A stretch of 63,108 nucleotides of DNA, the filler included, from Dugesia japonica (taxonomy: Eukaryota): NCBI GenBank assembly GCA_001938525.1. It is 6 parts of 6 records of this genome, joined end to end, with 100 filler letters (N's around TTAATTAATTAA, not from the genome) between each part and the next. Parts side by side here need not be neighbours in the genome. Positions count along the whole stretch, not along the records: positions 42,540 to 53,665 come from MQRL01646855.1; 5 more parts are not named here. The stretch is one strand, 5' to 3'. Position 1 is the first letter of the stretch. The number at the start of each line of letters is the position of its first letter. Positions 4,593-53,600 of this stretch are shown here, piece by piece. The notes under the pieces were generated by a model. That model was not told the origin of the DNA. It saw only the letters and a list, made by a program, of their open reading frames with translations, and did not search any database. Position numbers and translations under genes: made by a program.

Positions 4593-5030
4593 ATGAATTA
4601 TTCACTCAACACATTTGAAAATTTTAAACCTTATCCCAGCTTAAAAATTCAACAAAATTTGCAAAATGATCTAAAAGGTATATTTTAATTATAATTCAAA
4701 TAAGAAATTCATTAAAAATTCAAAGAATGTTGTAAAGGAAATACTTATACCATTTATAATGAAAAAGATGAAATTATTTTCCTAGCATATGAAAGTAAAA
4801 TTTTATTTTAAAATAAAATTAATCGACAGCGACAACTTTCCAGAATCACATGTCAATGTTTGTTGTGCTAGATGGTGGTGTGGACCTAATAGAGGATTTT
4901 GGTTTTATGTGTTGGACGAAATGAACAATTTAATTTTTCAATTTAATAGAGTTTCATGCAGGTAATAATTGCCTAACTTGTATAAAATGTGTTAAAATAT
5001 GTAAAAGTATAATGACATTATGTTATACAG
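4593..5030 (+). pseudogene. Phospholipid scramblase-like gene fragment, spliced, truncated or frameshifted
   Basis: Exons 4593-4677, 4726-4794, 4844-~4961 joined by 48- and 49-nt GT-AG introns give MNYSLNTFENFKPYPSLKIQQNLQNDLK-ECCKGNTYTIYNEKDEIIFLAYE-KSHVNVCCARWWCGPNRGFWFYVLDEMNNLIFQFNR, matching the PLSCR pattern NKYEIKN..GQ.VYFAAE.TDCCTRNCCGPSRPF.L.I.D. Confidence 0.6.
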
Positions 5031-6549
5031 TGATCCTGCTCAATCTGAAATTTCTTTTAAATTCATTAAAATGTCATTTGTATTCGTTTAATTTTTCATT
5101 AATTTTAATTAATGGTAAAGAAAAGATTTTGTTTGATAATTACCAAATTATTTTAAACATCAACTTAAATTTAAAAATTTGGTGTAACTAATATATTTAA
5201 GATTGCATATTTTATTACACAAAATATAAGGAATAACACTAAAGATAAGGAATCTGGGTAGAAATATGATCAGTAAATCTTATACGTTTTTATATCAGTA
5301 ATTTGTCATCTGACTTTGTAAGTTACAAGAGTTATAAGTCGGCAAATCAGGAATTTCAGAAATTTTTCTCACAATGAAATAAATAGCGACGTATGATATA
5401 TAACCTGGTTATTTACTCGATTTATAAAAAAGAAATATTAAAAGTAGATAGATATTGAGTATGAGGAAACTTTCACTCTTGCTCAGTTGCGAGTTCTCAG
5501 CACTGAAATTGGATCTATTACATAACCAATACAAATATAACAATCTTGTCGTTTAACCTATTTCATAATTGTTTTCCATGGAATTTGATATTATAAGACA
5601 AATAATAATTCATTACATAAAAAATATTATTTTTTATTATTATTATTATAGTAGGTAGATAGTGGCGCCACGGCACATTTTTTAGCACAATTTTGAGTAG
5701 TTTTTTTCTAAGATTTTTAGGATCAAAAATATTTTGATCAGATCGAATTTTTTCGATCTGGTCAGTTTTTTTTATCCTGGTGGTGTGTGTGTGTGTGGAT
5801 GTTTTAATTTTAAAATTTGTGTGTTTGGGTTGTTAAGTAGGTCAAGTTGAGTTTGTGTGTGTATGAAAGAAGGGTTTTGGACTCCAGGGGGAGCTAGAGA
5901 TCTTGGAAACAATTTTTTTAAAGGTTTTAAGATTTGGTTGTCGTCGGACAAAAATTTGATTTATACATTGTCTAAAGGACTTATGGGGTAGGATGGATGG
6001 ATTTTGCTAGTAGGGTAGTGACGTACGTCACAGTCGTATGAGTTATCGTGGTGTGTTTTTTGGGAGGTTGTAGGTTTGTATGGGGTTATTGGAATTTGTT
6101 GGTTNNNNNNNNNNNNNNNNNNNNNNNNNNNNNNNNNNNNNNNNNNNNNTGAATGTTGATTTTAAGGGCTTGAATTTGATTGGTTGTAAGTAGTATAAGT
6201 GTTTTATAAAAATGTTTCGGGATGGGGGAAAAGGTATAGTTGGAAAGAGAATTAATTATCGGATTTTTTAAGATTTATTTGAAATTTTTCTGGCCGGCAG
6301 GTGTGACGTAATAAATGTTTGAAATCTTTATTTTGTGTAAAAATGCTGTATTTTGCTTAGAATGATGAATTATTAGAAAGTAATGGTATTTTTGAGTATT
6401 TTTTTTGAGTATTTTTGAGTGGAAAGTGTTGTTTTTAAAATATTTTGAACAGGGAAGACGGAAACTTCAAAGAGGGGAGTCTTTATGATATTTACAGGAT
6501 AAAATATTGAAATAAGAACTTTTCTTTACAAGATGATAAAAGACATATA

Positions 6550-7110: not shown

Positions 7111-7357
7111 AAAAGTCACCATGCGAAATCATGCTCGCGCCATGTTCATGAATATTTTAGATAACAAATCATATTATTTGAAACAAATTACACCCAATCA
7201 TATAAATTAAAATTAATAATAACCATTCATTTACTTTGAAACATCTATCGACCAATAGAAACTAACAAATAACGAGTCTTTATGTATCACAGCAAGTATA
7301 TAAACAGTAGGTTTCATAAAATAAGTCACTTTTACAATTCAAAATTACTATTATAAA

Positions 7358-7603
7358 ATAAATCAATTCGAAAAAGAAATTAAGAAAATTACATATGCAA
7401 TTACCAGAGGATCCGCTGACTTTCAATTCATAAGCAGGATCGACAATGGTCTATTGAGAAAACATGAGTATGTCGAACTCATTGTCCGATCAATATTTAT
7501 GGTCAAAATTAAGGAAGAATTGAAGAACCAAAAGAGAAATAAATTTATTGCTGTAACTTTATTGAAATCCATTGTGATATTTTATTTGTTTGGTCGGAAT
7601 TAA
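7358..7603 (+). pseudogene. Small tail-anchored membrane protein, homolog of 46078-46353; start codon is ATA
   Basis: 81 open codons INQFEKEIKK...KHEYVELIVRSIF...AVTLLKSIVIFYLFGRN; about 39/82 identities to the 46078 ORF by hand alignment; CCAAT (7252) and TATATAAA (7297) upstream. Confidence 0.75.
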
Positions 7604-8178
7604 TATAATTATTATTATTTTGTTGTTTAATAAGTAGATTTGAAAAATAATTTTGTTTTTTTCTTGTATTATTTATATAAAAAACTTATAAGTAAATAGT
7701 TTTTTAACTACAATTGGTTTATGAGTGTATTATTTACATAATAGCCGTGTATTATAGGGTTTATTTACATAATAACCATGTAATGTGAGGTAGTAATGTA
7801 AATGCATGCTCGTGTCATACCAAATATATGTTCATGACATGTTCACAAAATTAAATAAATAATATGAAATAATAACAATTTTATTTAAATAGAGATCATT
7901 TGTTTTTTAGTATTATTTAAATGAAAAAATTAACAAGACTTTTTGATAATAAAACATATATTTTGCATAATACAAATACATGCAAACAAATATGTCATAT
8001 GTAATGTCGCATCTTTTATTGTAAACCGCTATCTAGTGTTCTCCACATAGATTTTTTGTATGANTATTGACGATTAAGGCATTGTTTACTGAAATAAGAA
8101 GATTTAAGTAACATTGATGTACTCCGTTCAATCTGAATAGAATTAATAAATTAAACATTAACTTTTCCTTTATTACAA

Positions 8179-9406
8179 TTATTTCAAGAATACCCAGCAT
8201 TGTGTACACCAATACTGTTCCGTTTTCTTTAATCTGAATTTCTTTTCAAGTACTTCATAAATGAGAACATATGCCGATGTTGTTAAAGCTTTGGAAAACT
8301 TCATATCCAATCTCAAATTTCCTTGTTGAGGTAATTGACTCTGATTTATATCAAAATCTGGAGCAAGAACAAATGTTAAGAAAAGATATTTATTCTTAAA
8401 ATCTTGAAGTGTTATTCCGCAATTCATATTTTTATCAAAATATCCCATATTTCTTACTATTGTTGCAAAATTATCGTTTGTAAAATCTTGAGTATATATT
8501 TCTCGATAATCAGTGTTTTTCATCCAAGAAACAGAAACAGCATCTAAATTTTGAAAAGTTGAACTCGAGATTTTAAAACTACTATTATATTGTTCACCCC
8601 ATTGAAAAGTAACCAGAATAAAGCTAGGTAATCGACGATCACATAAGATTTGTTCATTAAAAACGATGAACTATCTTTACTAATTACAAATGTAACAAAT
8701 TCTTTGATTCTTATTGGATAAACAGAATTTTGCTTTTTAGCCCAATTTGGTGAGCAGCTAGTACTGAGGGTTCAACTCGTACTCGTCTAACTATTAATTT
8801 AGCACATAATAATGCATATTTAGGTTGATTAGCGGCAGATTCCAAACAAATATTAGCATTTGCTCGTTTCAATCGTATATGAACATTGACACCTGGAATA
8901 AGTTATTTCGGTTGATCCTTGAAATCGAGTTGTAATGAGCTACATAGAGATAATTGTTTTTATTTTTTTAATAGACTTTTTTCTATCTGCTTCTGATCCA
9001 TATCTCATGATGTAAGACAGATATTCTTACTATCACCATTATAATTTATTATAGTTTCAATCAATGCTTTGTGAAGATAAGATCCATTTCCACCTTCAAT
9101 TTTGAAATTATTAAACAAAAGAATTGCATTTTTAAAAATTGTATGCAACATTTAGTTACTAGGAACCGAATCATCCGTATCAGTCAAATCTTTATCATCC
9201 TTATCAACTACCTTTACTTAAATATACAATAAAGTATCATTCAAATCCAAATAATCTGTTTGAGATCCATTTATAAAAAACTCTACATCGCTTTGTGATT
9301 CAGAAATTGAATTCATAAGAAAGACATCTTCGAAACTACCATTTTCAATTACAGCTTGAGGAGATGGTCGATCAAAAATACATAATTCAATTTTACCGCA
9401 AATCAT
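8179..9406 (-). pseudogene. Polinton major capsid protein (double jelly-roll, hexon-like), disrupted
   Basis: N-terminus CGKIELCIFDRPSPQAVIENG...VEFFING...YLDLNDTLL, then LHTIF...LN; C-terminus GNLRLDMKFSKAL; typical of Polinton MCP; stops and frameshifts present. Confidence 0.85.
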
Positions 9407-9900
9407 TTTTCAATTATTGTTCCATGTCCTTTTATTCGTTTGTTTATACGTGATGAGTTAGATTTTTTGAGTTTTTTATTAGTTGGTTCTGTTTTGTATT
9501 GATTTGTTAGCATATTAGTTATTTCAGATGATATTTTATTAGTTATACTTTGTGGTAATATAACTGCTACTTTTGATATCATACTGGTAACTCTACTAGG
9601 TAAGGAATAATCTACATTTCTAAGTTCAGCTAATGCATTTGATTTCAATATGGTTAGTATTTTTTCAGAATTAGCTAGTACATCCTGAGCTGTTTTCATA
9701 CCAAAAGAACCAAGCATTTTTTTTAAATTTTAAATTTAGGAATGCAAACAGATATATGTGAAGAACGAGGATTGTTAAACGAAGAAAGACAACCATTCCT
9801 CCCATTTGCAGTTATCAAACAATATATCGCGGCTGAATTTTGCACACCTGACTGTATTGTATGTGCAAAGTTTAACCTGTATGTTGCAATGGAGAATAAT
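9403..9900 (-). pseudogene. Polinton basic core-like protein gene upstream of MCP
   Basis: G..TAQDVL motif, Lys-rich C-terminus, QMGG remnant upstream; stop codon overlaps MCP start codon. Confidence 0.55.
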
Positions 9901-12221: not shown

Positions 12222-13855
12222 ATGAATTCTGCATTTTCAGTGGAAGCAATTCTTAATAAAAAGGACGACAAAGACGATTGTAAGTATAAAAATCTTATTA
12301 TTTTATTTTCAATAGAATAATCAGGATTTAATGCTTATTTTATTTTATTTATTATTTGTTTTTTTATTTTATGAAATCAATAATCAAGCAAAGTAATACT
12401 TAAAAACGACAAAATATTTTTTAAATTTCTGATAATCTTTGGTCAATATTTGAGTGACCGAAAAATATTTGAAAATTCCTTTCATCAAAAATTTAATTAT
12501 TTTATTCATTAATTGAGTATATTTNNNNNNNNNNNNNNNNNNNNNNNNNNNNNNNNNNNNNNNNNNNNNNNNNNNNNNNNNNNNNNNNNNNNNNNNNNNN
12601 NNNNNNNNNNNNNNNNNNNNNNNNNNNNNNNNNNNNNNNNNNNNNNNNNNNNNNNNNNNNNNNNNNNNNNNNNNNNNNNNNNNNNNNNNNNNNNNNNNNN
12701 NNNNNNNNNNNNNNNNNNNNNNNNNNNNNNNNNNNNNNNNNNNNNNNNNNNNNNNNNNNNNNNNNNNNNNNNNNNNNNNNNNNNNNNNNNNNNNNNNNNN
12801 NNNNNNNNNNNNNNNNNNNNNNNNNNNNNNNNNNNNNNNNNNNNNNNNNNNNNNNNNNNNNNNNNNNNNNNNNNNNNNNNNATAATAATAATAAGTAGTC
12901 AATTTAATTATATATTAATTTTTAGTAAATTACTTTTTTAAAAATTTTTAAAAATTATCTTTTTTGTCCATAATTTCTAAATGAGTATCATGAAGCTTTT
13001 TGTTTATATTTTATTAATTAAATTAGAAAAATTAATAAAAACTGACTTTGCATGCATGTATAAACAAATATCAAACTAAAAATTTTGAGCAGAAACATTA
13101 TTTTTCTTTCATTTTCTCAAAATATTTTTTGATAAATCATTTTGCTAAAATTTTGACGTTAATGAAGATTTATTTTTTACAAATAAAATATTTTCATTGA
13201 AAAAAAAAACAAGACATTTAATTATCATACTTTAGGTACATCAAACGGCACCAATTCCAACATTGAATCACTTTTATCAAATAGTTTTTTAAAAAATCCA
13301 GATATCCAAAAGCCCAGTGATGACATAAAAGGTTCTCTTGATAAATTTAGAAAGCGATTAAACTACAACTCTGAAATTTCCAATTCAAAAAAGAAACAAA
13401 GAAATCTTTTTTCCAAATCCCAAACGTCAATACTTAGACAATATTTTAATAAAAAAAATTACATTTCAGCTTCAGAACGTGAAGCATTATCGATTTCAAC
13501 AAATTTGAGTCCAGAACAAATAAAAATATGGTTTCAAAACAATCGATATAAAATGAAAAATAGTTATAATTATCGATCTCAAAAACAAATTCATAATTAT
13601 GATTTTAGTTCTTCTACTGCCAATCTAATAATCGATAATTACAATAATCTTTATCGTAATGTAAAATCATTGAATTCAATTGATTATTTCTGTAATAACT
13701 GGTTTCAGTGGAACAAACCGATTGACATGTTTGGACTGGAAAAAGCTACTTTTTATAAAAATATTAAAGAATCTGGATCCAATTCTTTTTCTTTAAATAA
13801 TTTTGATAAACAATTCAATAAAAATTTACTCAACCATGATTGGATTGGAAACTGA
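12222..13855 (+). CDS. NK2-class homeobox transcription factor (exons 12222-12279 and 13236-13855; 225 aa)
   Basis: Exon 1 MNSAFSVEAILN (TN/eh1 motif) with GTAAGT donor; TTTAG acceptor keeps frame (phase 1); homeodomain 13388-13567 KKKQRNLFSKSQ...LSPEQIKIWFQNNRYKMK with Tyr54 typical of NK2/NK3/NK4; an N gap in the intron could hide an exon. Confidence 0.88.
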
Positions 13856-24772: not shown

Positions 24773-27210
24773 TACATCATGTGATATATCCTTTGATGTA
24801 GTGTATTCAATTTTCGCTTTGCCATATACCGGAAAGTTGAAATATAAAGTTGAAAAATAAGGGTGCATATTCTAGTCTACAATTCAAGATGGAGAATCTC
24901 GAAATGAGATCAGTGCACATTCCGAAAAATGTAAAATATCAGGTTGCAGAAGATGTCAGAAAATTCGTAAACTGCAACTTACAGTTTGGAATACATGCAA
25001 AATTTGAGAAAAATGATGGTGATGAGGAAGAAATTAAGGAATGGTTCTGGTCCTACAAAGCAGTAGGGTATTCGGATAATTTTTTGACAAAGGTAACAGC
25101 AAAAGCAAATAAAGAAATCGAAACCTTGTCTGAGCTTAGTATTGGATGGAAAATTAGAAGAATTTTAAAGCTCAGGTTTATTTTAGTCAAATTCTCAACG
25201 GTAATTTACTTATACGGTCGATTATTTATTCGGAGTTCAGAATCGTTGCAAAGAAGCAAGGCCATAGTGAATGTAAAGAATTATAATAATAAATGTTTCT
25301 ATGTAGCATACTTGCATTGCTCAAGTATGATATAATCAAAAAAGATCGAAATCGAACACAGAAATATGAGAGCTTTTTAAATGAATTGGTGTACAATGAG
25401 CAGAAGATGCCGATGAAGCTCATCAATATCCCGGAATTTGAAAGGGAAAACGAATTATCAATAACGGTTTTCAAGTATAAAGTAGTACTTAATAGAGAAG
25501 AAAACACTAAAATTGTGTACAAAAATCCACATGGACGCCCCGTGAATTTGTTGATGCTGGAAAACGGTCAAGATTATCATTACACGGGAGTGGTAAATTT
25601 GGATATATTAATAAATTTAGACGTCAAATCAATAAAATGTCGAATACAAAGAAAATAGGGCCAAAAGTGCCTGCATGAATTCAAGACACAGACTACTTTC
25701 AATCAACATGTAGATCTATGCAGCCAAATAACTGAAAACACTTCACTATACACAATGCCGGCAGAAAAGGAGTTGAACTTCAAAGATTTCGGAAAAATTA
25801 TGACTCCAAGATTTGAATTATACGCTGATATTGAAACTATCTGGTTCCAGAAGATGATGGTCGAGTCAGGCATTTACCGATAGCTGTAAGGCTTTTATTA
25901 ATTTAATTGCTGGAAGAAGCCAGAAAATGCGAATATTAATCATTTTATGAAGAAAATTGTAAGGTGGAAGTTTTGGATTGTATTGATAAATTAGCAAAGA
26001 ATGTAGTTGCACCTTGATATAAGAAAAACATGTGTGCAGATATGAAAATAACAACAGTAGAATAGATTTTATTTCTAAACACATTGCTATTTATGTGGAG
26101 ACAAAGTCAAGAAACTGGTTTGAGATCACGATAATTTCTGAGGAAAATATATTGGCACTGCATGCAATCAGTGCAATTTGTCCAGAAAGATCAGAATGAA
26201 ATTGCCTGTTATGTTTGATAAATTTAAAGGTTATGATTCACATCATATTATCAAATGTGCTCTCAATCAATTTTAGTATTGGGAGCTGAAACCAATTGCA
26301 AAACCCACAGAAAGATTCCTAGCAATGTTTGCAAATGTAGGTAATGGAGTCATAATTCAATTTATTGATTCATTCCAGTTCCTGAGCAGTTCACTATCAT
26401 TTACATAAACGAAATATCAGCGAGAAGAGCAGCTTCCAAGACAAAATTCAAAAAGGATTTTTAAAAGTTGCTGAATAAGGTTTTGTATGGCAAGACGTTG
26501 GAGAATTTAAAAAAGTGGATGAATCTCCAACTTTGCAATAATGAAAAGAAATTTGTTACGTATACGAGCAAAGTAACATTCAAACAGACGATGGATATTG
26601 CAGATGGATTAAAAGCTGTTTTGCTGGAGAAGGATTGCATATGTCTAAATAGTCCAAGTTACATTGGACATGTGGTTCTGAATTTTAGCAAGTTACGCAT
26701 GTACAAGTTACAGTACGAAAAGTTGGAAAATTATAGAAATCAATTTGACTACAAAATTGGTATTATTGCAGGTGACACAGATAGCTTTTTCTTGTCATGT
26801 ACTAGAGTAGATAAAAATAGATTGCTGAGAGAAATGGTCTCCTGGATACAAGCAATTATCCAAAGGATCACCCATTATACTCTAGTGAAGTGACCAATAA
26901 GATCGGGCTTTTTAAAGATGAGGGTCAAAGAAAAAATTATCTGCAATGTGTATTTCTGAGACCCAAATGCAAAAGCATGAAGAAAGAAGATGGCAGCACA
27001 ACAAAGAAGGCTAAAGGAGTTGGTTTGAAACAAACTAACATTCTTCATGATAATTTTATGGATGCATATATCGGAGCGGGAGAAGTGAAGAAGGTAAATC
27101 AGAGCACATTAAGGTCAATTAATCATCAGAAACTAAGAAATGCGCGTTATCATGTATGAACGATAAGCGCTTTTCGGAGGATAAAATAAGAGTATGGCCT
27201 ATGGCCATTA
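24773..27210 (+). pseudogene. Polinton protein-primed family B DNA polymerase, disrupted with internal deletion
   Basis: IVNVKN.NNKCFL.SILA; endonuclease VII-like DHDN..GKYIGTACNQCNL; exonuclease KGYDSHHI and FIDSFQFLSSSL; KLLNKVLYGK, GDTDSFF, IGLFKDE, FLRPK, KAKGV. Confidence 0.92.
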
Positions 27211-27592: not shown

Positions 27593-30120
27593 AGTAGGTG
27601 GAAGTGAGTGCACTAGACCAGGATGTTTACATTATTGTAGGTGTGAACTTCCACGCCCTAATGTAAACTATGAAATTGACACCTTGGGTGTGAACTTTCA
27701 CACATTAATGTAAACATAGAAATTGATACTCGAGGTGTGAATTTTCACGCCTTTAAAATAAACAATATTAGGTGTGAAATTTCACACTTCAGTTGACCTT
27801 AAATTAATATTTTTTGTTTTAATTAACATGTATATAATCATGTATATAAAATTCAATTGGATATGTGTATAATACCCATCGGTTTAATATGTGTATTAGA
27901 CTCACTTTTTGGTTTATTGCATGTATTATATGACGTTATATGATTTATTGTATGTATTTATTTGTATGTATCAGGTTTATTCTATGTATTTAAGAGACTT
28001 TATTGATTATTTGTCTGTTTTATATAACATTATTGGGTGTAATTTATGACATTAGTCGATGTATTATGCATATTATATAATATTATTTCGTGTATTGTGT
28101 GTATTATATTAATATGAATATATAGAGTATATAGTGTGTGTGTATTATAACACTATATTGCAATACTTGGGTGTATTATTGGACTTTATATGGTTGATAA
28201 TGTAGGTATTATATGAATTTATTGGGTTTATCATGTGTATTATATAACTATATTAAGTTTCTTGTATGTATTATAATACATACAAGAAACTTAATATAGT
28301 TATATAATACACATGATAAATCCAATAAATTCTCTATAAGGTTTAATTGCTATAGGTTTATAATAGATAAAATAGATAATTATAATGTTGTATATGATAA
28401 GAGTAGTAATATAGTAACGAGGAATATAGAATTTTTCTTATATAAATAGTTGAAAAATATTTTTAATTGGATTTTTTATAGAATCTGGATGAACAGCCAA
28501 ACCTTTTACTCGGTTTTAGCCGATTCGGTCAAAGTTTTCTTTGGATTTGGTTGATTTGGTCAAATCTTTCTTCGAAGTGGTCAAATTTGGCTTATTTCGT
28601 GTGATTGTTTAGTGAATTTAGTCATAGACTTCCTCTGGTTTGCTTGATTCCGTTGAAATTTTACTCGCTGATGTCCAATCTGGTATATATCTGGATAGTT
28701 TAGGTAATTTTTGAGTGATAATTTGCTCTGTGAGGTCAATTTTGTCTATTTTCTTGATGGTTATTTTTTAATTTGATCAAAGATTTCGTCGGGTTTGCTT
28801 GAATTAGTTGACATTTTACTCGGCAAAGTTAAATCAGGTTTAGTTTTAGTAGTTTTAGGTGATAATTTACTTAATGATGTCGAATCAGGTAGATTTTGAC
28901 TGGTTTTAGGTGATTTTAGGTGATAATTTACTTAGTGAGAACAAATCTGGTTAATTTCGGTTTGGAATCTTCTCTGTTTTCTCGGTTTGGGTAATCTTTG
29001 GGTAAACTCGGTTGAACACTTCCCCGATATGGACAGTTTTGGGCAATCTCAGTCAATTATTTATTTACAAGCGTGAATTAAGGTGATAACTTCCGTGGTC
29101 TGGTCAGTTTGGATTAAATATTTTAAGAAAATTCATGGCAAAAGTCAAATTTGTTTAAATTTCTAAGTTTTCAAAAATGTTTTATGAGATGTATTATGGA
29201 AATTCGGAGGAACAGTCGATGTTGTTTAAATAATATGAAAACTTTAAATTTTTAGATCAATACATGTGATAAGTGAATCCTGTTGAACATCCTAAATTTT
29301 GAAAATATTTTTTATCGAGATTTTTCCATCTATCAATTCAGAATGACCTCGATATCATTTATAGCTAGAAAATAATTTTTCGAAAAGTTTTATGTTCTCA
29401 AATTTAATTATAAACCATTCTATTCGATTAAAATGTTAAAATGATCATGACTGATCTATTTAAAAATTGCCAAATTCTGCCTGGGGCTGAAGTAAATTAG
29501 ATAAACCCGGTAAATTTTGACAATTTTTAAGGTTTTTCTTTTCTAATCGTAACAAAACATATATTATTTGATAGAGACTTTTCAGTGATCAAGAAAAACA
29601 TCACTTAAAATCACAAAACTTAATTTGGCAGAAAAAATTTAAAAGTACATGGTCGAAAATCCCGAGGATGCTTAATGATTTTTTTACTATTCGATAAAGA
29701 CGTTTTTACTGATTAAGAATATTGACGGTTTAAATTTGCAAATCAAGTTACTTTAAAAAACTTTACATTTTTTATTTCTTAATAATTAATTAAAATTTGA
29801 AAAATTATAAAAAAATTATAATAATAAAAAAGAAACCTGTCTCAAAATTTATAATTAAACCATCTTTTTGATAGAGAATATTTTGCTGATCAAGAATAAT
29901 ATCAACTAAAATCATTAAACTTTCTACATGATGAAATAAATCAAAAAACAAGTACTTAATTTGGGTGTCTCACCCCAGAAACATAAAAATAGGCTAATAA
30001 TTTACTCGGTGAGGTCGAACCAAGTCTAGTTTTAAGTTGTTTTAAGTAATCTTAGATTAGTTTTTACTTAGTGAGGTTGAATCAGGTATATTTTGACTGG
30101 TGTTAGCTAATAATTTACTT
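27593..30120 (+). mobile_element. Polinton-type terminus plus long non-coding repeat-rich subterminal region
   Basis: AGTAGGTGGAAGTGAGTGCAC; four GGTGTGAA(C/T/A)TT(T/C)CAC units (27640-27790); TGTATTAT repeats; GGTCAA/CTCGG degenerate satellite (28500-29160); 29073-29370 aligns inverted with 39820-40110. Confidence 0.6.
28215..28332. repeat. 118-nt near-perfect palindrome with no loop
   Basis: 28227-28273 is the exact reverse complement of 28274-28320; one mismatch, then 11 more paired bases. Confidence 0.95.
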
Positions 30121-33666: not shown

Positions 33667-33725
33667 GGGGGGGGGGGTTACCCCCCTCGAGGGGCCCCGG
33701 TTTGGTGCGCTCATATCTACCTACT
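33667..33725 (-). mobile_element. Polinton-type terminus (right end)
   Basis: Reverse complement reads AGTAGGTAGATATGAGCGCACC followed by G/C tracts. Confidence 0.65.
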
Positions 33726-42539: not shown

Positions 42540-43700
42540 ACAGAATTATTGTATATAGATATCAACAATCTATATGGATGGGCGCTAAGTCAAAAATTGC
42601 CCTATTTGATTTGGAGTGGGTTTATACAGGATTAGAAGATATTATAGATGAAAGTAAATCAGCAGACTTAGAGTCACTACCATATGGATGCAAATTGGAG
42701 GTGGACATGTTTATTCCGGCGAGATACAAGATAAATTGAACGATTTACCTGTAGCAGCAGAACATCAAAGAAATTATTACTGACTCATTACTCGAAAATG
42801 AATTATGTTATACACTGGAGGTTGCTGCAAATTTACATTAAATTAGGAGTACAGGTAATTAAAGGTTCATAGAGCAGTTAAATTCAAGCAAGCTGCGATT
42901 TTTGAAGAATACATTAAACAATATACAGTACTGAGATCAAAATGTACAACGGAATTAGATAAAACTATTACAAGTTATTAAATAATAGTCTGTACGGTAA
43001 GTCTGTAGAGAATTTGAAGAAACGAATAAACTTGCACTTGTGCAATTCAAACAAAAACGTTGATGACATATACGTCAAAAGCTAATTTTTTGAAAACTTT
43101 AAAAATAGATCAGGACCTAATAGCTGTTCTTCTTAATAAGGACATTGTTTGTTTGGATGGTCCGAGCTACATCGGACAGACTGTACTAGACCTCTCAAAA
43201 CTCCGTATGTATCAATTACAATACATTGATTTGGAAAAAAACAGGAGGGAAGAAAATTGTACAATAATGTTGTAGCTGGAGGTTGGAAAAACTAACCGGA
43301 CTGATGGTAAGAGATCAGCTATTGAATACGTCAAATTGTAGCACAAGCAATCCCATTTACTCGAAAAACTTAAACAGTATGATTGGAAAATTCAAGGACG
43401 AGAGTAAAGGGAAGAAATATAAAGAGTGGATATTTTTAAGGTCTAAATGTTATAGCCTACTCAGCGATAAAGAATCGTGTAAAGCTAAGAGCATATCATT
43501 GAAGAATAGCGGCATCACACATCAGTCATATATTGACTATTACAATAATAATTATGCTGTCATTGTAGATTAGTTTCAAATATCCACTCGTAATCATCAA
43601 CTCTACAGCATGAAAAGTAAAAAAAATAGCTCTATTCAATAGGGAGGATAAAAGAATGTGGATAGAGTAAAATATAAGTATGCCGTACGAACACTATAAA
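42540..43700 (+). pseudogene. Polinton pPolB C-terminal polymerase domain, disrupted
   Basis: LLYIDINNLYGWALSQKLP (motif A), YYKLLNNSLYGKSVENLKKR (motif B), PSYIGQTVLDLSKLRMY, IGKFKDE, FLRSKCYS; paralogous to 26468-27159. Confidence 0.92.
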
Positions 43701-45196
43701 TTAAGTAAATAACAAAAAAAATATGTAGTACTTTTTCTCGTGTTATCAAAGTGATTACAATGAAACAGAAGCTTGTGTCAAGATGGTAAGTATTTATTTT
43801 TATATTGTAAATATTTAACATTTTTCTTTAGTATTTAAATTGTTGCTTCTGATCCAGATAGTTTACTGCTGTTGCTACAAATCAAGTTGATCCGTATTGG
43901 AAAACATTTATTATTTATAAATATTAAGTACAATTTCATATTAAAGTTTATTTTGCTGCTCATTCCGCTTCTACNTTAAGAAAATTGTTCCGTATCGGTA
44001 ATGAATTACTTTATTGTAAATTTCTTTAAACAATTTTTTATTGTAGTATATTTTCAATCAACAAGAAAAGAAAAGAAATAAGAAATTATGAAGAGGAAGA
44101 AGATATTTAAAAAGAACAAGAAAAAAAATTGTGAGGAATACCAGCCCTCTTTAGGGCTACAATTGCTGATTATTGGATTTCATATTTAAAATCTTTGAGA
44201 CTAAACTCACGATATTGTTGATTTGGCTTTGTGAAATCCAAAAGGCATCTCAACAATTAAACAATAAATTCGCCGCAGTAAACTTGCTCGTGATAAAACA
44301 TGTTACATTCTAAATCTAAATAAATTTAAATATGAAATAAAAATTAAAATAAGTTATCTTTTTTATTAATAGTGCATTTATGTTTCTTTTCCAATGCAAC
44401 TGATAACGATTGTATTTTTATCATCAACCGTATATCTTTGATTACTTCCGGACTCTTACAATTTAGATCCATGTTGANNNNNNNNNNNNNNNNNNNNNNN
44501 NNNNNNNNNNNNNNNNNNNNNNNNNNNNNNNNNNNNNNNNNNNNNNNNNNNNNNNNNNNNNNNNNNNNNNAAAAAGTTATATTTTCTAATTTCTGGTTAA
44601 ATTCAAGTTTTTCATTACATTTTTCATTTTGAAATATTACTAAGAATTCCAAAAATTGAATTTCCATCAACGCGTGCAGACCAGCTTGTAATGTATTGTA
44701 ATGTATATCTATACAGTAAAACCTCTTTATGTGTTATTTCTTCCATAGCATTTATAAAAGGTTCCAAATTGTACAACTTCTTGAGAGTGATTGCTTTCTT
44801 CAATTTGCATTGGTTTAAGTATTTTTCAACACTTATTGTTAAATGTCTATTTTCCCTTGTAAAAATAAATGGAATACTTAAATTACATACCTTTTCTTTG
44901 TGTAATTCTTCATTATCCTTGTNNNNNNNNNNNNNNNNNNNNNNNNNNNNNNNNNNNNNNNNNNNNNNNNNNNNNNNNNCCATAATAATTTGAGAAAATA
45001 ATGATTGATTACTACAAATTAGACTTTACATATGTTAAAGCATGCATGTGTGTTCTTTGTTTACGCGATAGGCTGTTCTTTGTTTGTGGTACTGATTGAA
45101 TACGTTTATTATTGGTTTTATTTACATTTCTTATTTTATTGGTTAACAAAATAGTATAAAATTTAAAATAATTTAATAATTTCATTATTTTTCTAA

Positions 45197-45729
45197 ATGA
45201 ACAAATACCAGTTGATGTTGAAGATAACCAACAAGATGCTTCTCACGATGAAAATGGAACAGCAATTTTCTGAGGCTATAGGTAAATTCTTTATTTATTT
45301 AAATACCTTATAAAATTCAATTTAGATAATAGTCAAGCAGACGCGGAAACTGATATAGATATGGGAGAAGAAGAAGAAGGATTAAATACGAAAGTGATTG
45401 ATTTATTGGAAAATTCCGCAGAAGTTTTTGATCATGGTATTATTATTCTTATTATTTTATGATTTTTTATTATTATTTTAGAACAGTTTATTGATATCCT
45501 TGATATCCTTTATCCAACAATCAAAGATGACATCAAATGCTGTGCACCTGAAATAATTTGGATAAAAATAAAGAAAATAACTGGAGTGGATATCATAGAT
45601 GTCATGGACACCTTTTACAAATACCATGACGATGAATGCAGTCAATGCGAAGAAACAAAAACCATTTTAAAAAGAAACTTTCTTGATACTATTTATAGCG
45701 ATAGTAATAATATAAAACAAAGATTGTAA
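45197..45729 (+). CDS. Hypothetical three-exon protein (~147 aa), acidic middle, Cys/His-containing C-terminus
   Basis: Exons 45197-45281, 45326-45436, 45482-45729; 44- and 45-nt AT-rich GT..TTTAG introns, both phase 1, join into one stop-free frame; GTATAAAA at ~45154 and two inverted CCAAT boxes upstream. Confidence 0.7.
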
Positions 45730-46077
45730 TTTAATTGTAATTTCATTGTATTGAAGTTTAATATAATTTTTAACTAGACTTTTTGACTAAATTTTTATTA
45801 ATATCTGTGGTCGTTTAATAATTTGTAATAAAAACTTAAATTTAATGTGTTTTCATAAAAGTTGCAATTCAACTGCAGTATGTAAGCAACAAGAATGCAA
45901 CTATAACAAAAAAATGCAAACAAACAACTTNNNNNNNNNNNNNNNNNNNNNNNNNNNNNNNNNNGGTAACAACTAATAGAAACTAACAAAAAACGTGTAT
46001 GTATGTACCTTAGTAAGTATAAAAGCGGTAATTTTCTTTAAAAAAAACTTATTTTATAATTCCAAATTTTTCTCAAC

Positions 46078-46353
46078 ATGAATTATTTGGAAAAAGAACT
46101 TAAGAAATTGTCAGATTCAATTAACAGCGGATTCATTGATGAAATTCAAATCCTAACCGAGCTTGATAATTGTCCAATGAGTAAACATGACTATGTTGAA
46201 CTTATTGTCCAATCAGTATTCACGAAGAAAATTCAGGATAAATTGGAGACACGAAGAAGAATTAAATATGCTGCTATGACTCTATTGACATCAATTGTGT
46301 TGTTTTATGTGTTTAAAAGAAATTATTGTAATTATCTTATTAATAAATGTTAA
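46078..46353 (+). CDS. Small predicted tail-anchored membrane protein (91 aa)
   Basis: Intact ORF; hydrophobic YAAMTLLTSIVLFYVF flanked by RRRIK and KR; TATAAAA at 46018; AATAAA downstream; homolog at 7358-7603. Confidence 0.75.
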   Translation: MNYLEKELKKLSDSINSGFIDEIQILTELDNCPMSKHDYVELIVQSVFTKKIQDKLETRRRIKYAAMTLLTSIVLFYVFKRNYCNYLINKC

Positions 46354-46496: not shown

Positions 46497-46672
46497 GATG
46501 AGTCATGATCTGGAAAATTGATGACTCATTGTCTTTGTTATAGTCATTGATGAGTCATCATTTTAAGTCATCGCCTTTGTTTTTGGCATCGATGAGTCAT
46601 TTTCTTTGCTCTAGTGATCGATGAGTCATACTTATGACTCATTGTCTGTGTTCTATTCATTATTGAGTCATA
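46497..46672. promoter_or_regulatory. Cluster of seven AP-1/TRE sites TGA(C/G)TCA
   Basis: Exact matches at 46499, 46522, 46551, 46593, 46622, 46635, 46664; function is inferred. Confidence 0.6.
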
Positions 46673-46797
46673 CTTTTGATTCAACGTCTTTCTTGTATAA
46701 GTTCTTTGTCTATGGGAGCGGATGTGATCCAGTGAGCTATTATCTACCTACGTATGGAAGGTAAACAAGAATGTTACTGAAACAATAAATGAAAACA

Positions 46798-47379
46798 ATT
46801 ATTAATAATTTATATATTTAAACTACAAAAAATTTTAAATTTCCCTCCAAAAAAATCTAACTCACTTTGTANTTCCGAGCGATAACTAGTAACATATAGT
46901 AACTCCCTATGAGTTATCAAAGAAAGACTTTCAAAAAAATTTCAAAAAAAAAATTTTCAAAAAATTTCATAAAAATAAAATTAATTTTGACGCAAAAAGA
47001 GCAGAAAAAAATACCTATTAAACTTTACATATAAAGATCACTAAAGCTCATATTATCTATTCANNNNNNNNNNNNNNNNNNNNNNNNNNNNNNNNNNNNN
47101 NNNNNNNNNNNNNATTATTAATAATTTATATATTTAAACTACAAAAAATTTTAAATTTCCCTCCAAAAAAATCTAACTCACTTTGTAATTCCGAGCGATA
47201 ACTAGTAACATATAGTAACTCCCTATGAGTTATCAAAGAAAGACTTTCAAAAAAATTTCAAAAAAAAAATTTTCAAAAAATTTCATAAAAATAAAATTAA
47301 TTTTGACGCAAAAAGAGCAGAAAAAAATACCTATTAAACTTTACATATAAAGATCACTAAAGCTCATATTATCTATTCA
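46798..47379. repeat. ~265-nt direct duplication around an N gap (likely assembly overlap)
   Basis: 46798-47063 is essentially identical to 47114-47379. Confidence 0.85.
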
Positions 47380-50109
47380 ACTACACATATGGTATATTAA
47401 TAAAAGATAAAATGAGAGCAAAATCACCAGCAAATGTATAAAATGTCAAAGTGTCACAATATTTTCTAAAATAAATAAATTTACCGATTTTTTTAAAACA
47501 CTTCCCATATAAATTAAAGTAGCGATTGAAGGATATATTTCTCTTGTTCCGGCAGCAGCTGTATCAAACAAAGATTTGGTATCCATTCTTGTAGTAATTA
47601 GTATAATGGATTTTTTTAAGTATCTTTTCGATGGATTAAACGTTAAATAAATGTTATATCCTGATAAATCAGNNNNNNNNNNNNNNNNNNNNNNNNNNNN
47701 NNNNNNNNNAGTCAAATGAAATAATTTTATTAATTAACAAAACAGTTATCATAACTATTGTTGAAGAAATATTAAATCATCAATAAACTTTTAATTGTTT
47801 TCAATTGTTTTAATTGAATTTTTAACAGAAAATATACGAGAAAACGTGAACGAAATTATTTAAATAAGTTGATCAAAAATTTTATTATGCATTTACAACA
47901 TTAAATAATACTTATGAAAAATAGTATGAAAGTGCGGCAAATAATTTTTCGTTTCTGAAATATTTTTAGGAATTTTTGAACTTTTATGCCATTTCATGAA
48001 AGATATCCTGAATTCATCACCATTATCAATAATAACATCTTGATTAAATTACTCTATTTGATTCAACATTTCCATTAGTTTAGTTGACATTATATCATCC
48101 ATTGCTTCACACATAATTTGAAAAATTTACAATGATTGCAAACACTTAATTTAAACAAATAGTATTTAAATTGTTAATAAAATCAATAAATTAATTAATT
48201 TTTTTAATCTTTTAATATAGTATCAACTATTGGTTAATAACGTATTGTCTTGATGCTAACTATTACAAACTTGCCTGATGAAAATAGATTGGCACATATG
48301 TGATCATACTGCTCAATAATTCGATCATTTCAGGTATTAATAAATAATTGGAATACTATGGAACTATATTTGACTAGTGATTTGTGGAAAAACTGAATTG
48401 TTAATTTTTGATCGTCCATCGCTTCAAAACAGGAAAGCATTTAAAGAAAAGTCTGGTGTATTGCCTAACAATTACATGTTTCATGATATGTTCAAAAATG
48501 GTATTCTGGTATTTCAATAATATCAAAATTAGAGTTGCAAATGAAACGTATATTTCAAAGGTAAGAACTGACTCTATTTTAAATTATAATAGAAATTTTA
48601 AGAATATTTATCTTAATGCACTTGTATAAAGAACTAAATAATTTCGAAAAATGTTTATTAAATCATCACAACTATTGTATATGGTTCTTTGCAACTCGAT
48701 TTCATAAATCAATCATAATATCTTGTTTTTGGTGTTAATTTCCACATTTAATTGAAGAAATTATATCCAAAAATTACGGAAGAATCATTAAATTATGAAC
48801 CAAAATATGTATTATTGGATGCAAAATCGATGGTTAGAAGAGTTCAAGTATATCCATTAGTACTAACAAGTCATCAAATTTGATTAAGCAAATAATGTGT
48901 TATTTAACCAATAAGATCAAAGGAAATTGTATCATATGTAATTAATGATAACAGTCATCGTTTTATAAGAAATAAATTTAAGCGTATGTAAAAGTAAATT
49001 TAAATTTAAGAAGTAAAGTTAAATTCAAACTTTGGAAGCGATATATATAGCAATAAATAGTTAGAAATATGGGATATTTAAACAAGAATACGAATTTTGG
49101 AAGAACTCTTAGAAATATTTAGAATAAATATCCCGTTTTTACATTCGTTCTTGGATTTTTATTCAACAAATTTTCAGGACTGCACAAGATTTTGAGAATC
49201 CGAAAGAGTAGAGAGATAGTAGCGCATCAAAATATCTATCCCCTGGCAAGTGTTTTGAAAAAGTAATTTTTGAGCGTTTTGATTGGTCAATAAAAATCCA
49301 TGGAAAATTTTAAATGTTCTGAAAATTTGAGCAATTAGATTTTTCGATAAAAATACATGGAATATTTTTCGATTTTGCTTTGTCGATATTTTGGTCGAGG
49401 AGTTTGAAAATTTGAATTTAATTTTTCGGCGAATTTTTATTGTATGACTTCAAATTTTGTATGGATGAACTTGTAATTAAATTCTGTATAAGAAAATAAT
49501 TTTACCTTTTTCAAAACATGTTTGGTTCTCGCTACAAGGGTAGTAGCGGCATGAGAACACTTTGACTTATTTTATAAATTTCTCGGTCAATACCCATCGT
49601 ATCGCTCTGAAAATGATTTAATCTGATTAAGAATAAGATTTTAAACATATTTTGTTAAAGTTTTGTTGTAAAAATGCTTTGTTCAAAAGTTAGAAAATTA
49701 CCATGTCCCACCTTAGATAAAAAAATTATTTACATAGAAAATACTTATGATAAAAAAAACTGAATATATTTCGTATTGGGTTAGCAGTATAAAAATGCTT
49801 CCTTCAGGAAATAATGTACAACTATATAGTTAATTATAAATCAGAATTATAATTAAATTAATAATAATTTTTAAAGTATTGTTAAACGATTCAACTAAAA
49901 ATTAAAAAGTTCTATAGAAATATAATTTCACTTTACTTAAAAATAAAGATTATTGATATAACAAGATTTATTTCAATAAAAATTTAATCTTTATTGAACA
50001 AATTTGAGCTGGTTGATATTGTATTGGTTTGTATTGATACACTAAAATTAAATGCATTGAGGTAATGAAATAATAATTAATAAAATACTACTACTACAAA
50101 ATTTTTATC

Positions 50110-50700
50110 ATGAATCGTTAATTTTTCATAAAAAAATATCAGTCAAGTCAACTTCTTTCTCTACTTTAACTGGTTCATCGATATACTACCATACAATAAA
50201 AACCGTATGAAACCTTTGGTATTGACGATATATGGCAAATGGATTTGGTGAAAATGATATTGTATTCGAGAATTAATAAAGAATACAATGATATTTTGAC
50301 ATGTGTCGATGTATTTAATAGATTTGCAAGAGTTGTAGCTATAAAATCAAAATCTGCTAATAAGATGGAAGCTGCAATAAAAACAATCTTCAAATAGGGG
50401 CATCCTGATAATTTGCAAACTGATTTGGGAAAAGAATTCTATAATTAAAAGTCAAAATTATTATTAATCATCTCAAGATTAGTCATTATTCTGTATTTTC
50501 ACAATACAAAGCAGCATATATTGACAAATTTAATCGAATCTTGAGAGATGCATTGTACATATTGGTAATAAAACTTGGATACACGTTTTATTCAAAGTAA
50601 TCGATAGTTATAATCACACAAGTCACATAGGGTTAAATGAAGCAAGACCTGCATCATCTAATAATTCAATGAAATTATGGATTTTGAGACATCAACCAAA
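50110..50700 (+). pseudogene. Polinton rve (c-)integrase, disrupted
   Basis: GIDDIWQMDLV, ILTCVDVFNRFA, PDNLQTDLGKEFYN, KAAYIDKFNR. Confidence 0.9.
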
Positions 50701-50799
50701 TGTTGGTGATCATTTTAGAATCTCAAAGATATAAGCTTCACTATTCATCAAGAATTTCGATTGTAATTGGAGTGATGAAGTGTTTCAAATATCAAAAAA

Positions 50800-51880
50800 T
50801 CAATACAAAGCAGAATCTGAGTAATAGTTGTCCATGTATTCATCCTGATAATAAAGCAAGTAGATTCATTGTTGCACTTGAAAATCCTATTTACTTGAAT
50901 GAACAATGGGAAGGAGCCTTGATGAATTTTACCTTTATATATTCTGCTTTTCAATTATATAACAAATCATACATCATACATACAGTTGATGATTATGAAA
51001 GGAATGTAGAAATCATAATCAATAACAAAGAAAAGTCATTGATGGTTCATGGTGTTGGTTTTGAAGTGATTGATGAAAAATCATTGTTAATAATATTAAA
51101 ACATCATGATTATGTTGTAATATATGACAATTTAGAAGATGCTAGAAAATATGGATTTAATACTTTAAGGAATAATATAGAATCTGATTCTACCATACTA
51201 AATCAAGACTTTAAAAACGATGATTCGATTAATATTGTGAAAATGAAATTAATGTTTTTAATAGAAACTAATAATTTTATAATTACAATTATTGTGAGAA
51301 TAATTGTTGGACTTAACCATTGATCGGATTTGAGATTTCATTAAAATAAATTCATATATTTACAAAACGAATATTACATATCAAATTTGGATCAATTTGA
51401 TAATTTTATCACAAAAATGTGCAAGTCTGTAATCAAAACACTTACTATAAAAATGATGAACCATTCCGATTTTCATTGTTGGAAAGTGTTAAAAGTGTTA
51501 CGCTTGACAATGTCTTGACCAAATCATTCCGATTAGATAAACAAACATATGCTTGTGATTATAGAAATATAGTCCACACTGAATTCATTGGTGTTAAATA
51601 TCCAAAATTAATCACTAATCCTCCCCAAATGTTCATATATAGTAATATTGTTGAACTTATAATAGTTGGTGATGTTAATGTTCCTTCATTGAAATCTGCA
51701 TGGTTGGAGAATTATGAAGATGATCAAGTTGCTCAGATTATAATCAAGAATCCAATGTATTTCTCAGTTGCCACTTCATGAATAAACAATATAGAAATCA
51801 ATATCCGAAGCGATAGTGGAGAATTAATCAAGTTTGCTAAAGACTCAAAAACTCATTTACTCTACATTTTCGAAAATAAA
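50800..51880 (+). pseudogene. Polinton minor capsid (penton-like) protein, disrupted
   Basis: SNSCP.IHPDNKASRFIVALENPIYLNEQWEGAL at the N-terminus; MFIYSNIVE..IVGDVNVP.L...NPMY...INNIEINIRSDSGELIKF...LHFRK at the C-terminus. Confidence 0.85.
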
Positions 51881-51899
51881 ATATTTTACAGAATCAACT

Positions 51900-52400
51900 G
51901 CTTATCAGATTCAATAACTGAAACTATTGGCTTCTTATTTTTGATATTGATTAAATTAAATCCAAAATTTTTAGCATCTGATAACGATTTAAATCCCATT
52001 TCTACTTGACATCTGTTTTAATATTACTTTCATTTTATCGGAAAATATATACCAGTTATATTTATTGGTAGGGACGGTATTATTAAGTTGAAGACTACCA
52101 TCTAAAATACTTAATTAAAATTTATCTTCAATTTCCATCACCTTTCTTATTTTATATTCAATTTTTGAACCTTTACGTATAGTAAAAATTGAAATAAAAT
52201 TCTGTCATGGTAACTTCAAAACGGATATCCTTTAAATTGATGGCATTCTCATAGTCAATTAATTACTTGCTTGCATTATTATCAGATCGAGTTCTTGGAC
52301 AACTATTGCTTAGCAAAACCATATATAAACTTATTATTGGATTTAAGACACTTGAATCTACGTATGCTTTGAATATCCATGCCATTCAACTAGATATTGT
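51900..52400 (-). pseudogene. Second penton-like remnant
   Basis: Minus strand MVLLSNSCPRTRSDNNAS directly after the integrase, paralleling 50820. Confidence 0.5.
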
Positions 52401-52469
52401 TTATATTGGCCTTGACCTTTGGTTTTGAGAACTGATTTGATTTGAGATATACTTGGTTTTTCCGCCAAC

Positions 52470-53321
52470 ACTTGTAATTCCTGCTCAAAATATTTGCTTT
52501 GAATAATATTACCATCTTCAGCACGTATTACATATATAACTGGGGCCGGTCTCGTGTTGATTTCCGAGATTTGAAAGACTTCATAACTCCAATTATTATC
52601 AAAGCTTTTGATGAATGGCGTAGTACTAATTCGGGAAATCCGTACATGTCCAATTTTATATTTTGGTTTTGGTTTTTTATTGATGAAATACTGAGTATAA
52701 TCATCTTTATCTGTAACATCAACTGGTTTTTGTCGTCTTTCAATATCTCTATGCTCAGAATGGTTGTATGCATAAATCGTTTTTGGTAAAATATGTATCT
52801 ATTTTTTGNTATCTTGTTTGGTAAAACATTTCTTAAATCGCCTTGTACTGAAAACTTACTGAATGGTGTAGTATACCATATTGTTTCAATAATGATTTGA
52901 CCTGTGTATTATAAAACTCTTTACCAAAATCTGTTTAAATAGCTTTTGGGTGAACATCTTTAAACATTGTCATCAAAGCCAACAAAATATCTTTACCAGA
53001 TTTTCGTGTGTCTGGAACTGCACGTGCATATCGACTAAATACATCAACACATGTCAAAATAAATCTTTAATCATTATTTATGCTTGCATATGGAATCATT
53101 TCCATCAAATCCATTTACCATAGTCTATTAACCCCAGTAACAATATATTTGCATGTTGGAAACCCTTTTCGTATTGGTTTATACAAACTATATGCCAGTT
53201 TATTGCTTAAACATTTCTTTATCTCTTTTACGGAAACATTTGCAGCATTTGCAAGCTTTGAAATAACGGTGTATTTAACCGGGTTCTTTGGATTAGACCA
53301 TAGTTGTTCCATCAATTTCAT
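52470..53321 (-). pseudogene. Second Polinton integrase, disrupted
   Basis: AYSLYKPIRKGF, LW*MDL, FILTCVDVFSRYA, PKAI*TDFGKEFYN, NWS.EVF.I region. Confidence 0.88.
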
Positions 53322-53419
53322 CGTGCAAATACAACAAGGAATATTTAGTTAAATGTCTGGAATATTAGAAGGTGCAACACCCATTTATATTGAAATTTCA
53401 AAAAGAATTGATATTTAAT

Positions 53420-53552
53420 ACAGAATCAACAATTATCGATTTTATTGCAGGTGACACAGATAGATTTTTCTTGTCATGTACTGGAGTGGACGAAGACAGG
53501 CTCTTGAGAGAAATCGAATATGATGATCTGCTGAATACAAGCTAATATCCAA
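53420..53552 (+). pseudogene. Short pPolB fragment
   Basis: IAGDTDRFFLSCTGVD..RLLRE, near-identical to 26765-26835. Confidence 0.8.
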
Positions 53553-53600
53553 ATATTGAATTTGTATTTTATTGTTAAAATAATAGAAATAATAAAGTTG

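Follow-up and report, generated by a model that had tools for sequence, protein, structure and literature searches.

A likely decayed, probably spliced accessory gene near the right end of a Polinton remnant in Dugesia japonica

The locus and the surrounding element

The window considered here (the whole stretch of 63,108 nt of Dugesia japonica DNA that was analysed) belongs to an animal assembly that is rich in A and T and interrupted by gaps, and it contains many fragments of Polintons and of broken LTR retrotransposons. Within one of these pieces a first-pass annotation had placed a small gene of three exons between the polymerase gene and the right terminus. The features of this region, with positions counted along the window, are:

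42540–43700, + strand: family B DNA polymerase of Polinton type (pPolB), C-terminal part, with many broken frames; assigned from its Pol motifs and a paralogue match
45111–45160, + strand: CCAAT-like and TATA-like motifs, weak, near chance frequency
45197–45281, + strand: exon 1, with likely frame breaks close to its start and around 45250; its acidic frame is the likely coding frame (codon bias, copy length differences)
45282–45325, + strand: putative intron 1, 44 nt, GT-AG, phase 1, 14% GC
45326–45436, + strand: exon 2, acidic, 35% D/E
45437–45481, + strand: putative intron 2, 45 nt, GT-AG, phase 1, 9% GC, with an in-frame stop
45482–45729, + strand: exon 3, whose first ~50 codons encode the conserved, predicted helical domain of the family
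45827–45832, + strand: AATAAA, a possible poly(A) signal called from sequence only, in an AT-rich context
46078–46353, + strand: neighbouring 91-aa ORF, with a paralogue at 7325–7600 beside a second Polinton remnant
46499–46670, no strand assigned: subterminal array of seven TGA(C/G)TCA (AP-1-like) sites; 7 of the window's 10 matches fall within these 172 nt
46741–46752, − strand: likely right terminus of the element, AGTAG-type with one mismatch; the 12-mer is exact at 5650 (+) and at 33714–33725 (−)

The polymerase remnant carries Pol motifs. It is 41–68% identical to a paralogue at 26465–27156, which itself matches Pfam DNA_pol_B weakly (E 0.023), and indels set RNA reads of related copies apart from it at five listed places. 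(Transcripts of related pPolB copies, predominantly from one strand, reach a depth of up to ~60 in three oligo-dT runs.) The terminus 12-mer starts an element at 5650 and ends one at 33725; the partner of the motif at 46741–46752 lies outside the contig, and the element's left part is missing beyond the gap that precedes 42540. The gene lies on the same strand as pPolB, ~1.5 kb after it and ~1 kb inside the terminus motif, with three small N gaps in between. Its position between pPolB and a terminus motif is confirmed, and across these gaps it likely belongs to the accessory zone that follows pPolB and extends to the right end. In one DNA run 756 contigs, most of them less than 95% identical, fall on 801 bases of the gene region, a count which is not a copy number and which points to a repeated family rather than a single-copy host gene.

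Other remnants flank the gene on both sides. Directly after pPolB there is a second putative spliced accessory gene (43760–44330, + strand), with an ATG at 43760 and GT-AG candidates at 43786–43831 (46 nt, 13% GC) and 43998–44046 (49 nt, 16% GC); it contains stops and looks decayed. A minus-strand ORF remnant at 44347–44920 (98 aa at 44627–44920) has no Pfam or PHROG match, and RNA reads of its related copies carry indels. On the other side, the 91-aa ORF at 46078–46353 is likewise without a Pfam or PHROG match; this ORF and its paralogue each lie beside a Polinton end, in opposite orientations relative to that end, and the overlapping segments (45972–46342 and 7251–7617) have 73% nucleotide identity. 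Within 46499–46752, where the AP-1-like sites lie, repeat numbers in RNA reads of related copies differ from that of the window. Past the terminus, a 266-nt duplicate (46798–47063 and 47114–47379), probably an assembly artefact, flanks an N gap, and 47400–53600 contains further Polinton gene remnants, among them two integrase pieces on opposite strands and pieces that are presumably capsid-like (67–80% identical to 8364–9425). The rve matches at 50200 and 52938 (E 1.5e-4 and 0.047), being beyond the right terminus, probably belong to these neighbouring remnants.

The gene model and its putative introns

When joined, the three exons total 444 nt and encode an open frame of 147 aa without an internal stop. 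The coordinates of the original three-exon model are right, the GT-AG ends of its 44- and 45-nt introns are present, and the translated protein contains the acidic tract and the letters of the CC...H-x3-C-x2-C cluster that had been reported for it. The modelled frame scores as coding over exons 2 and 3, and within exon 2 it scores +21.8 versus −26 and −35 for the other frames. The TATA and CCAAT motifs that had been remarked upstream are also there (TATAAA at 45155, ATTGG at 45111 and 45138), but their frequency is near chance (0.27 and 0.21 per 140 nt, respectively); a similar motif (GTATAAAA) also lies upstream of the neighbouring ORF at 46078. (The TATA-like site starts with GT and opens an AT-rich stretch, 45154–45194 on the + strand, that is roughly intron-sized and could be an extra 5' intron in related copies.)

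Several kinds of evidence bear on the introns. The GC content of the exons is 0.37, 0.34 and 0.29, versus 0.14 and 0.09 for introns 1 and 2; intron 1 has stops in all three frames, and its length is not a multiple of three. A short-intron filter gives three matches in the 63 kb, two of which are introns 1 and 2 of this gene, and two matches are reached in 14 of 5000 shuffles of the gene region, a figure that is optimistic because the filter was devised after the introns were seen. Among close copies, all five of the listed intron indel rows are non-triplet (two in intron 1, three in intron 2); the sole row in exon 2 is a triplet, and exon 3 has none. A distant homologue of the protein, P0012, has a 14-residue insert exactly at the place of intron 2, flanked by G and by L-E as in the window. 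Within this insert 12 of the 14 residues come from AT-rich codons, versus 41 of 142 elsewhere (Fisher p 5e-5), which suggests that the insert, as judged from the protein, may be an intron of 42 nt that corresponds to intron 2 in both place and phase. In addition, the ORFs of 11 of the 13 homologues described below start 3–24 columns after the start of exon 3, which is what an intron-blind caller would report for the last exon.

In four raw RNA runs and in a second mapping of reads and contigs to the gene, no spliced joint is listed over either 45282–45325 or 45437–45481; a junction is listed given three reads or one contig, depth over the gene is low (47 reads in run X23), and nearly all reads come from other copies. 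The 479-nt contig 22 of run X17, a run guessed to be RNA, derives from a copy that is 89% identical and spans intron 2 unspliced. The same intron 2 variant is present in three reads of the oligo-dT run X23, on the sense-type strand. Contigs of X17 cross intron 1 unspliced as well, and the raw reads there lie on the opposite strand. This material may represent read-through of dead copies, DNA, or retention.

These observations might also be read to mean that the gene is unspliced at intron 2 or throughout, with the AT-rich stretch encoding a short in-frame hydrophobic linker whose stop reflects decay. The lengths of the stretch in the window (45) and in P0012 (42, again judged from the protein) are both multiples of three, P0012 reads through it without a stop, the sole RNA over intron 2 is unspliced, and two of the intron 2 indel rows lie in one contig and cancel. 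However, the stretch has exact GT-AG ends and 9% GC; the interior residues of the insert have AT-rich codons in common, not sequence; a non-triplet indel is present in 12 contigs; most of the homologue ORFs begin after the stretch; 14 residues that include N and K would make a poor membrane helix; and intron 1 has stops in all frames and a length that is no multiple of three. We regard a linker as unlikely, and the introns are probably real in working copies. As far as sequence can tell, the spliced accessory gene inside a Polinton that had been proposed is well supported by composition, by copy indel patterns and by the distant homologue.

The protein family and its predicted fold

A phmmer search against 1.84 billion representatives gave seven matches, six of them true (E 4e-7 to 9e-4). 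(P0001 was dropped as a family member, being a tandem-repeat artefact.) A profile search returned 10 of 520 candidates, five of them new, and cluster look-ups added two more, for 13 unnamed homologues in all, whose link to Polintons is putative. The homologues are 33–46% identical to the window over the aligned part of exon 3, and a core of ~50 residues is conserved among these 13 distant sequences. Twelve of the 13 are without the N-terminal half, and 11 have been called in the database as last-exon-sized pieces only. The N-terminus of P0012 is acidic, with a similarity to that of the window which is weak (reached by 119 of 2000 shuffles). No named family in Pfam, PHROG, PDB or Atlas corresponds to the protein, nor was the family found in a literature search. 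The gene family is real, and it is unnamed.

It had also been suggested that the gene was captured from the host and is carried by the element as cargo. Work on nematode Mavericks (10.1101/2022.07.12.499685) describes intron-bearing cargo genes, the wasp proteases and krma kinases, in a variable region beside the TIR, with intronless core genes. The gene in the window is similar in being a probably intron-bearing gene within the variable region next to a terminus, and its putative introns are host-sized; it differs from that cargo, as described there, in having 147 codons, in having no enzyme motif, and in its position downstream of pPolB. Against capture, there is no named, Pfam-annotated or long cellular homologue and no fold match, the homologues are all unnamed records on contigs under 2.4 kb, and no paralogue of the gene is found elsewhere in the 63-kb window. 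Such an origin is, like the linker, an unlikely one.

The AlphaFold2 model of residues 1–57 of exon 3 contains three helices (pLDDT 78, pTM 0.52). Fold searches with this domain gave no significant match; 8 of the 50 weak rows are what we take to be histone-fold complexes, and histone-fold dimers (TAF8/TAF10, NC2, CHRAC and Dpb3/4) may be among the closer known systems. When modelled as a homodimer, the domain passes the mark set for an interaction, with 0.36 versus 0.02 for the best of three controls. Of solved pairs from microbes 21 of 30 reach this mark, as do 7 of 16 pairs from animals, whereas none of 23 microbial single chains does. The three dimer runs gave 0.28, 0.74 and 0.36, so that one of them (0.28) is below the mark; they share at least 63% of their contacts, with pLDDT of at least 71. 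The conserved residues 34–38 are located on the twofold axis of the model. Thus, the modelling supports self-binding of the exon 3 domain.

The dimer model brings Cys20 and Cys21 of each chain close to Cys53 and Cys56 of its partner, and a metal site across the interface, limited to the sub-family of the window gene, is possible. The Cys/His cluster is not a trait of the family: its five positions are retained in 0 (C20), 10 (C21), 3 (H49), 5 (C53) and 0 (C56) of the 13 homologues, such that the second Cys of the CC pair is the sole well-kept position of the five. The window protein has one CxxC, which is present in 1 of the 13 homologues. No LxCxE motif is found in the four window segments or in the 13 homologues (12 of which are without the N-terminal half). 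As a family property, the zinc-binding, E1A-like reading does not stand.

Decay of this copy and the likely role of the family

The first-pass annotation described the gene as intact, with the caveat that an alternative acidic frame in exon 1 left the N-terminus uncertain. The caveat was well placed, since exon 1 was probably coding in this acidic frame. There, G occupies codon position 1 in 12 of 23 codons of the acidic frame versus 1 of 23 of the ATG frame, and the coding scores are +13.9 and −3.5, respectively. None of 110 true-frame training windows is as biased against its own frame as is exon 1 in the ATG frame (a leave-in test, in that these windows belonged to the codon-bias training set). 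That the ATG frame is nevertheless open is unremarkable, because 6162 of 20000 codon shuffles (31%) likewise leave an off-frame without stops. The lengths of other copies differ from that of the window at two places in exon 1, near the exon start and near 45250, the latter in 7 of 9 RNA reads of related copies. In the DNA run X1 the variant near 45250 holds only 807 of 6535 summed depth (four contigs, with five further contigs ending there), so other copies may share the state of the window. The first ~18 codons of this copy would be read in a frame in which they did not evolve, and consequently the 147 codons are likely open by accident, through two frame breaks that offset each other, which seems the simplest reading of exon 1. 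Furthermore, 30 of 32 classified exon differences are non-synonymous, which is no better than neutral (82% expected without selection), and pPolB and the minus-strand neighbour are broken too. The description as intact is unsupported; the gene copy is likely decayed and frame-disrupted, like its neighbours.

An intact, working, acidic and zinc-binding E1A-like early protein of 147 aa, as originally envisaged, is therefore improbable. The frame is open, the cysteines that approach each other across the dimer model make a metal site conceivable in the sub-family, and a loose end in run X1 retains the CxxC. However, exon 1 is off-frame, the cluster is poorly kept among the homologues, and LxCxE is absent. 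To judge from the description of adintoviruses (PMC8502044), the gene does resemble those for the 'Oncoid' proteins and adenovirus E1A in encoding a small, acidic accessory protein with some cysteines; it differs in that it is without LxCxE, a CR1 match (in the window segments), paired CxxC or conserved cysteines, and in that it lies downstream of pPolB when Oncoid genes typically lie upstream. All three of the Oncoid/E1A features tested (LxCxE, paired conserved CxxC, and a position upstream of PolB) fail in the window gene. That the breaks are instead assembly errors in a whole genomic copy is very improbable: the exact locus is unseen in the raw data because the best DNA run contains only 0.24 of the words, and the assembly has many gaps and the duplicated stretch at 46798/47114, but the many stops and frame changes of pPolB and the many substitutions in the exons fit an old copy better than consensus error.

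Taken together, these results argue, on balance, that the locus holds a small accessory gene, likely spliced and in this copy decayed, from a multi-copy animal Polinton. Its product belongs to an unnamed family, and the prediction is that it lacks enzymatic activity and forms a helical homodimer that bears an acidic tail. In working copies, host RNA polymerase II would transcribe the gene from the integrated element, and the host spliceosome would remove its host-sized introns of 42–45 nt. The conserved exon 3 domain is predicted to pair with itself, so as to display two acidic, probably disordered N-terminal arms. Because the protein is without an enzyme motif, its likeliest role would be that of an adaptor which binds other proteins and so adjusts the transcription or chromatin of the host in favour of the element; we offer this role tentatively. 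A more elaborate version supposes that the spliceosomal intron of this unnamed Polinton family is ancient and conserved, that the family is widespread, and that its proteins form an intertwined dimer like that of a histone fold, with acidic arms, and serve as a decoy for complexes of host transcription or chromatin. Retention of intron 2 (with a stop here) would then keep the protein off up to activation of the element, so that host splicing would act as a latency switch. This version is highly speculative and seems quite improbable.

Comparable arrangements are found in other elements. In the study of vertebrate Mavericks (PMC8097293), accessory regions with variable ORFs flank the core modules, the genes are intronless and the termini start with AG; the window element is similar with respect to the variable ORFs flanking the core and the AG start of its likely right terminus. 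In dinoflagellates, one report (PMC11957031) describes introners, which are mobile introns mostly gained after integration, in maverick-polinton-like proviruses. The presence of spliceosomal introns in Polinton-like elements would thus be common to both; in contrast to the mobile introners, intron 2 of the window gene appears old, being apparently common to a homologue at ~53% identity. If the present reading is right, accessory genes of animal Polintons can carry old, conserved spliceosomal introns that are missed by ORF-based annotation, and the accessory genes of these virus-like elements, a poorly known set, gain an unnamed small protein family with a dimer prediction. Intron-bearing Maverick cargo has already been described in nematodes, and the copy in the window is likely dead.

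A few features elsewhere in the window concern the host. The scramblase-like gene had served as a yardstick for intron size. Its host exon (4843–4959, + strand), ~700 nt before the Polinton end at 5650, is real, with a Pfam match at E 7e-4 that falls below the curated cut-off, and it is directly preceded by a GT-AG candidate of 49 nt (4795–4843). A homeodomain ORF at 13187–13852 (+ strand; Pfam E 1.9e-17), which we take to be NK-like, points to an animal host. Finally, 28215–28332 is a 118-nt near-perfect palindrome that is 98% self-complementary.
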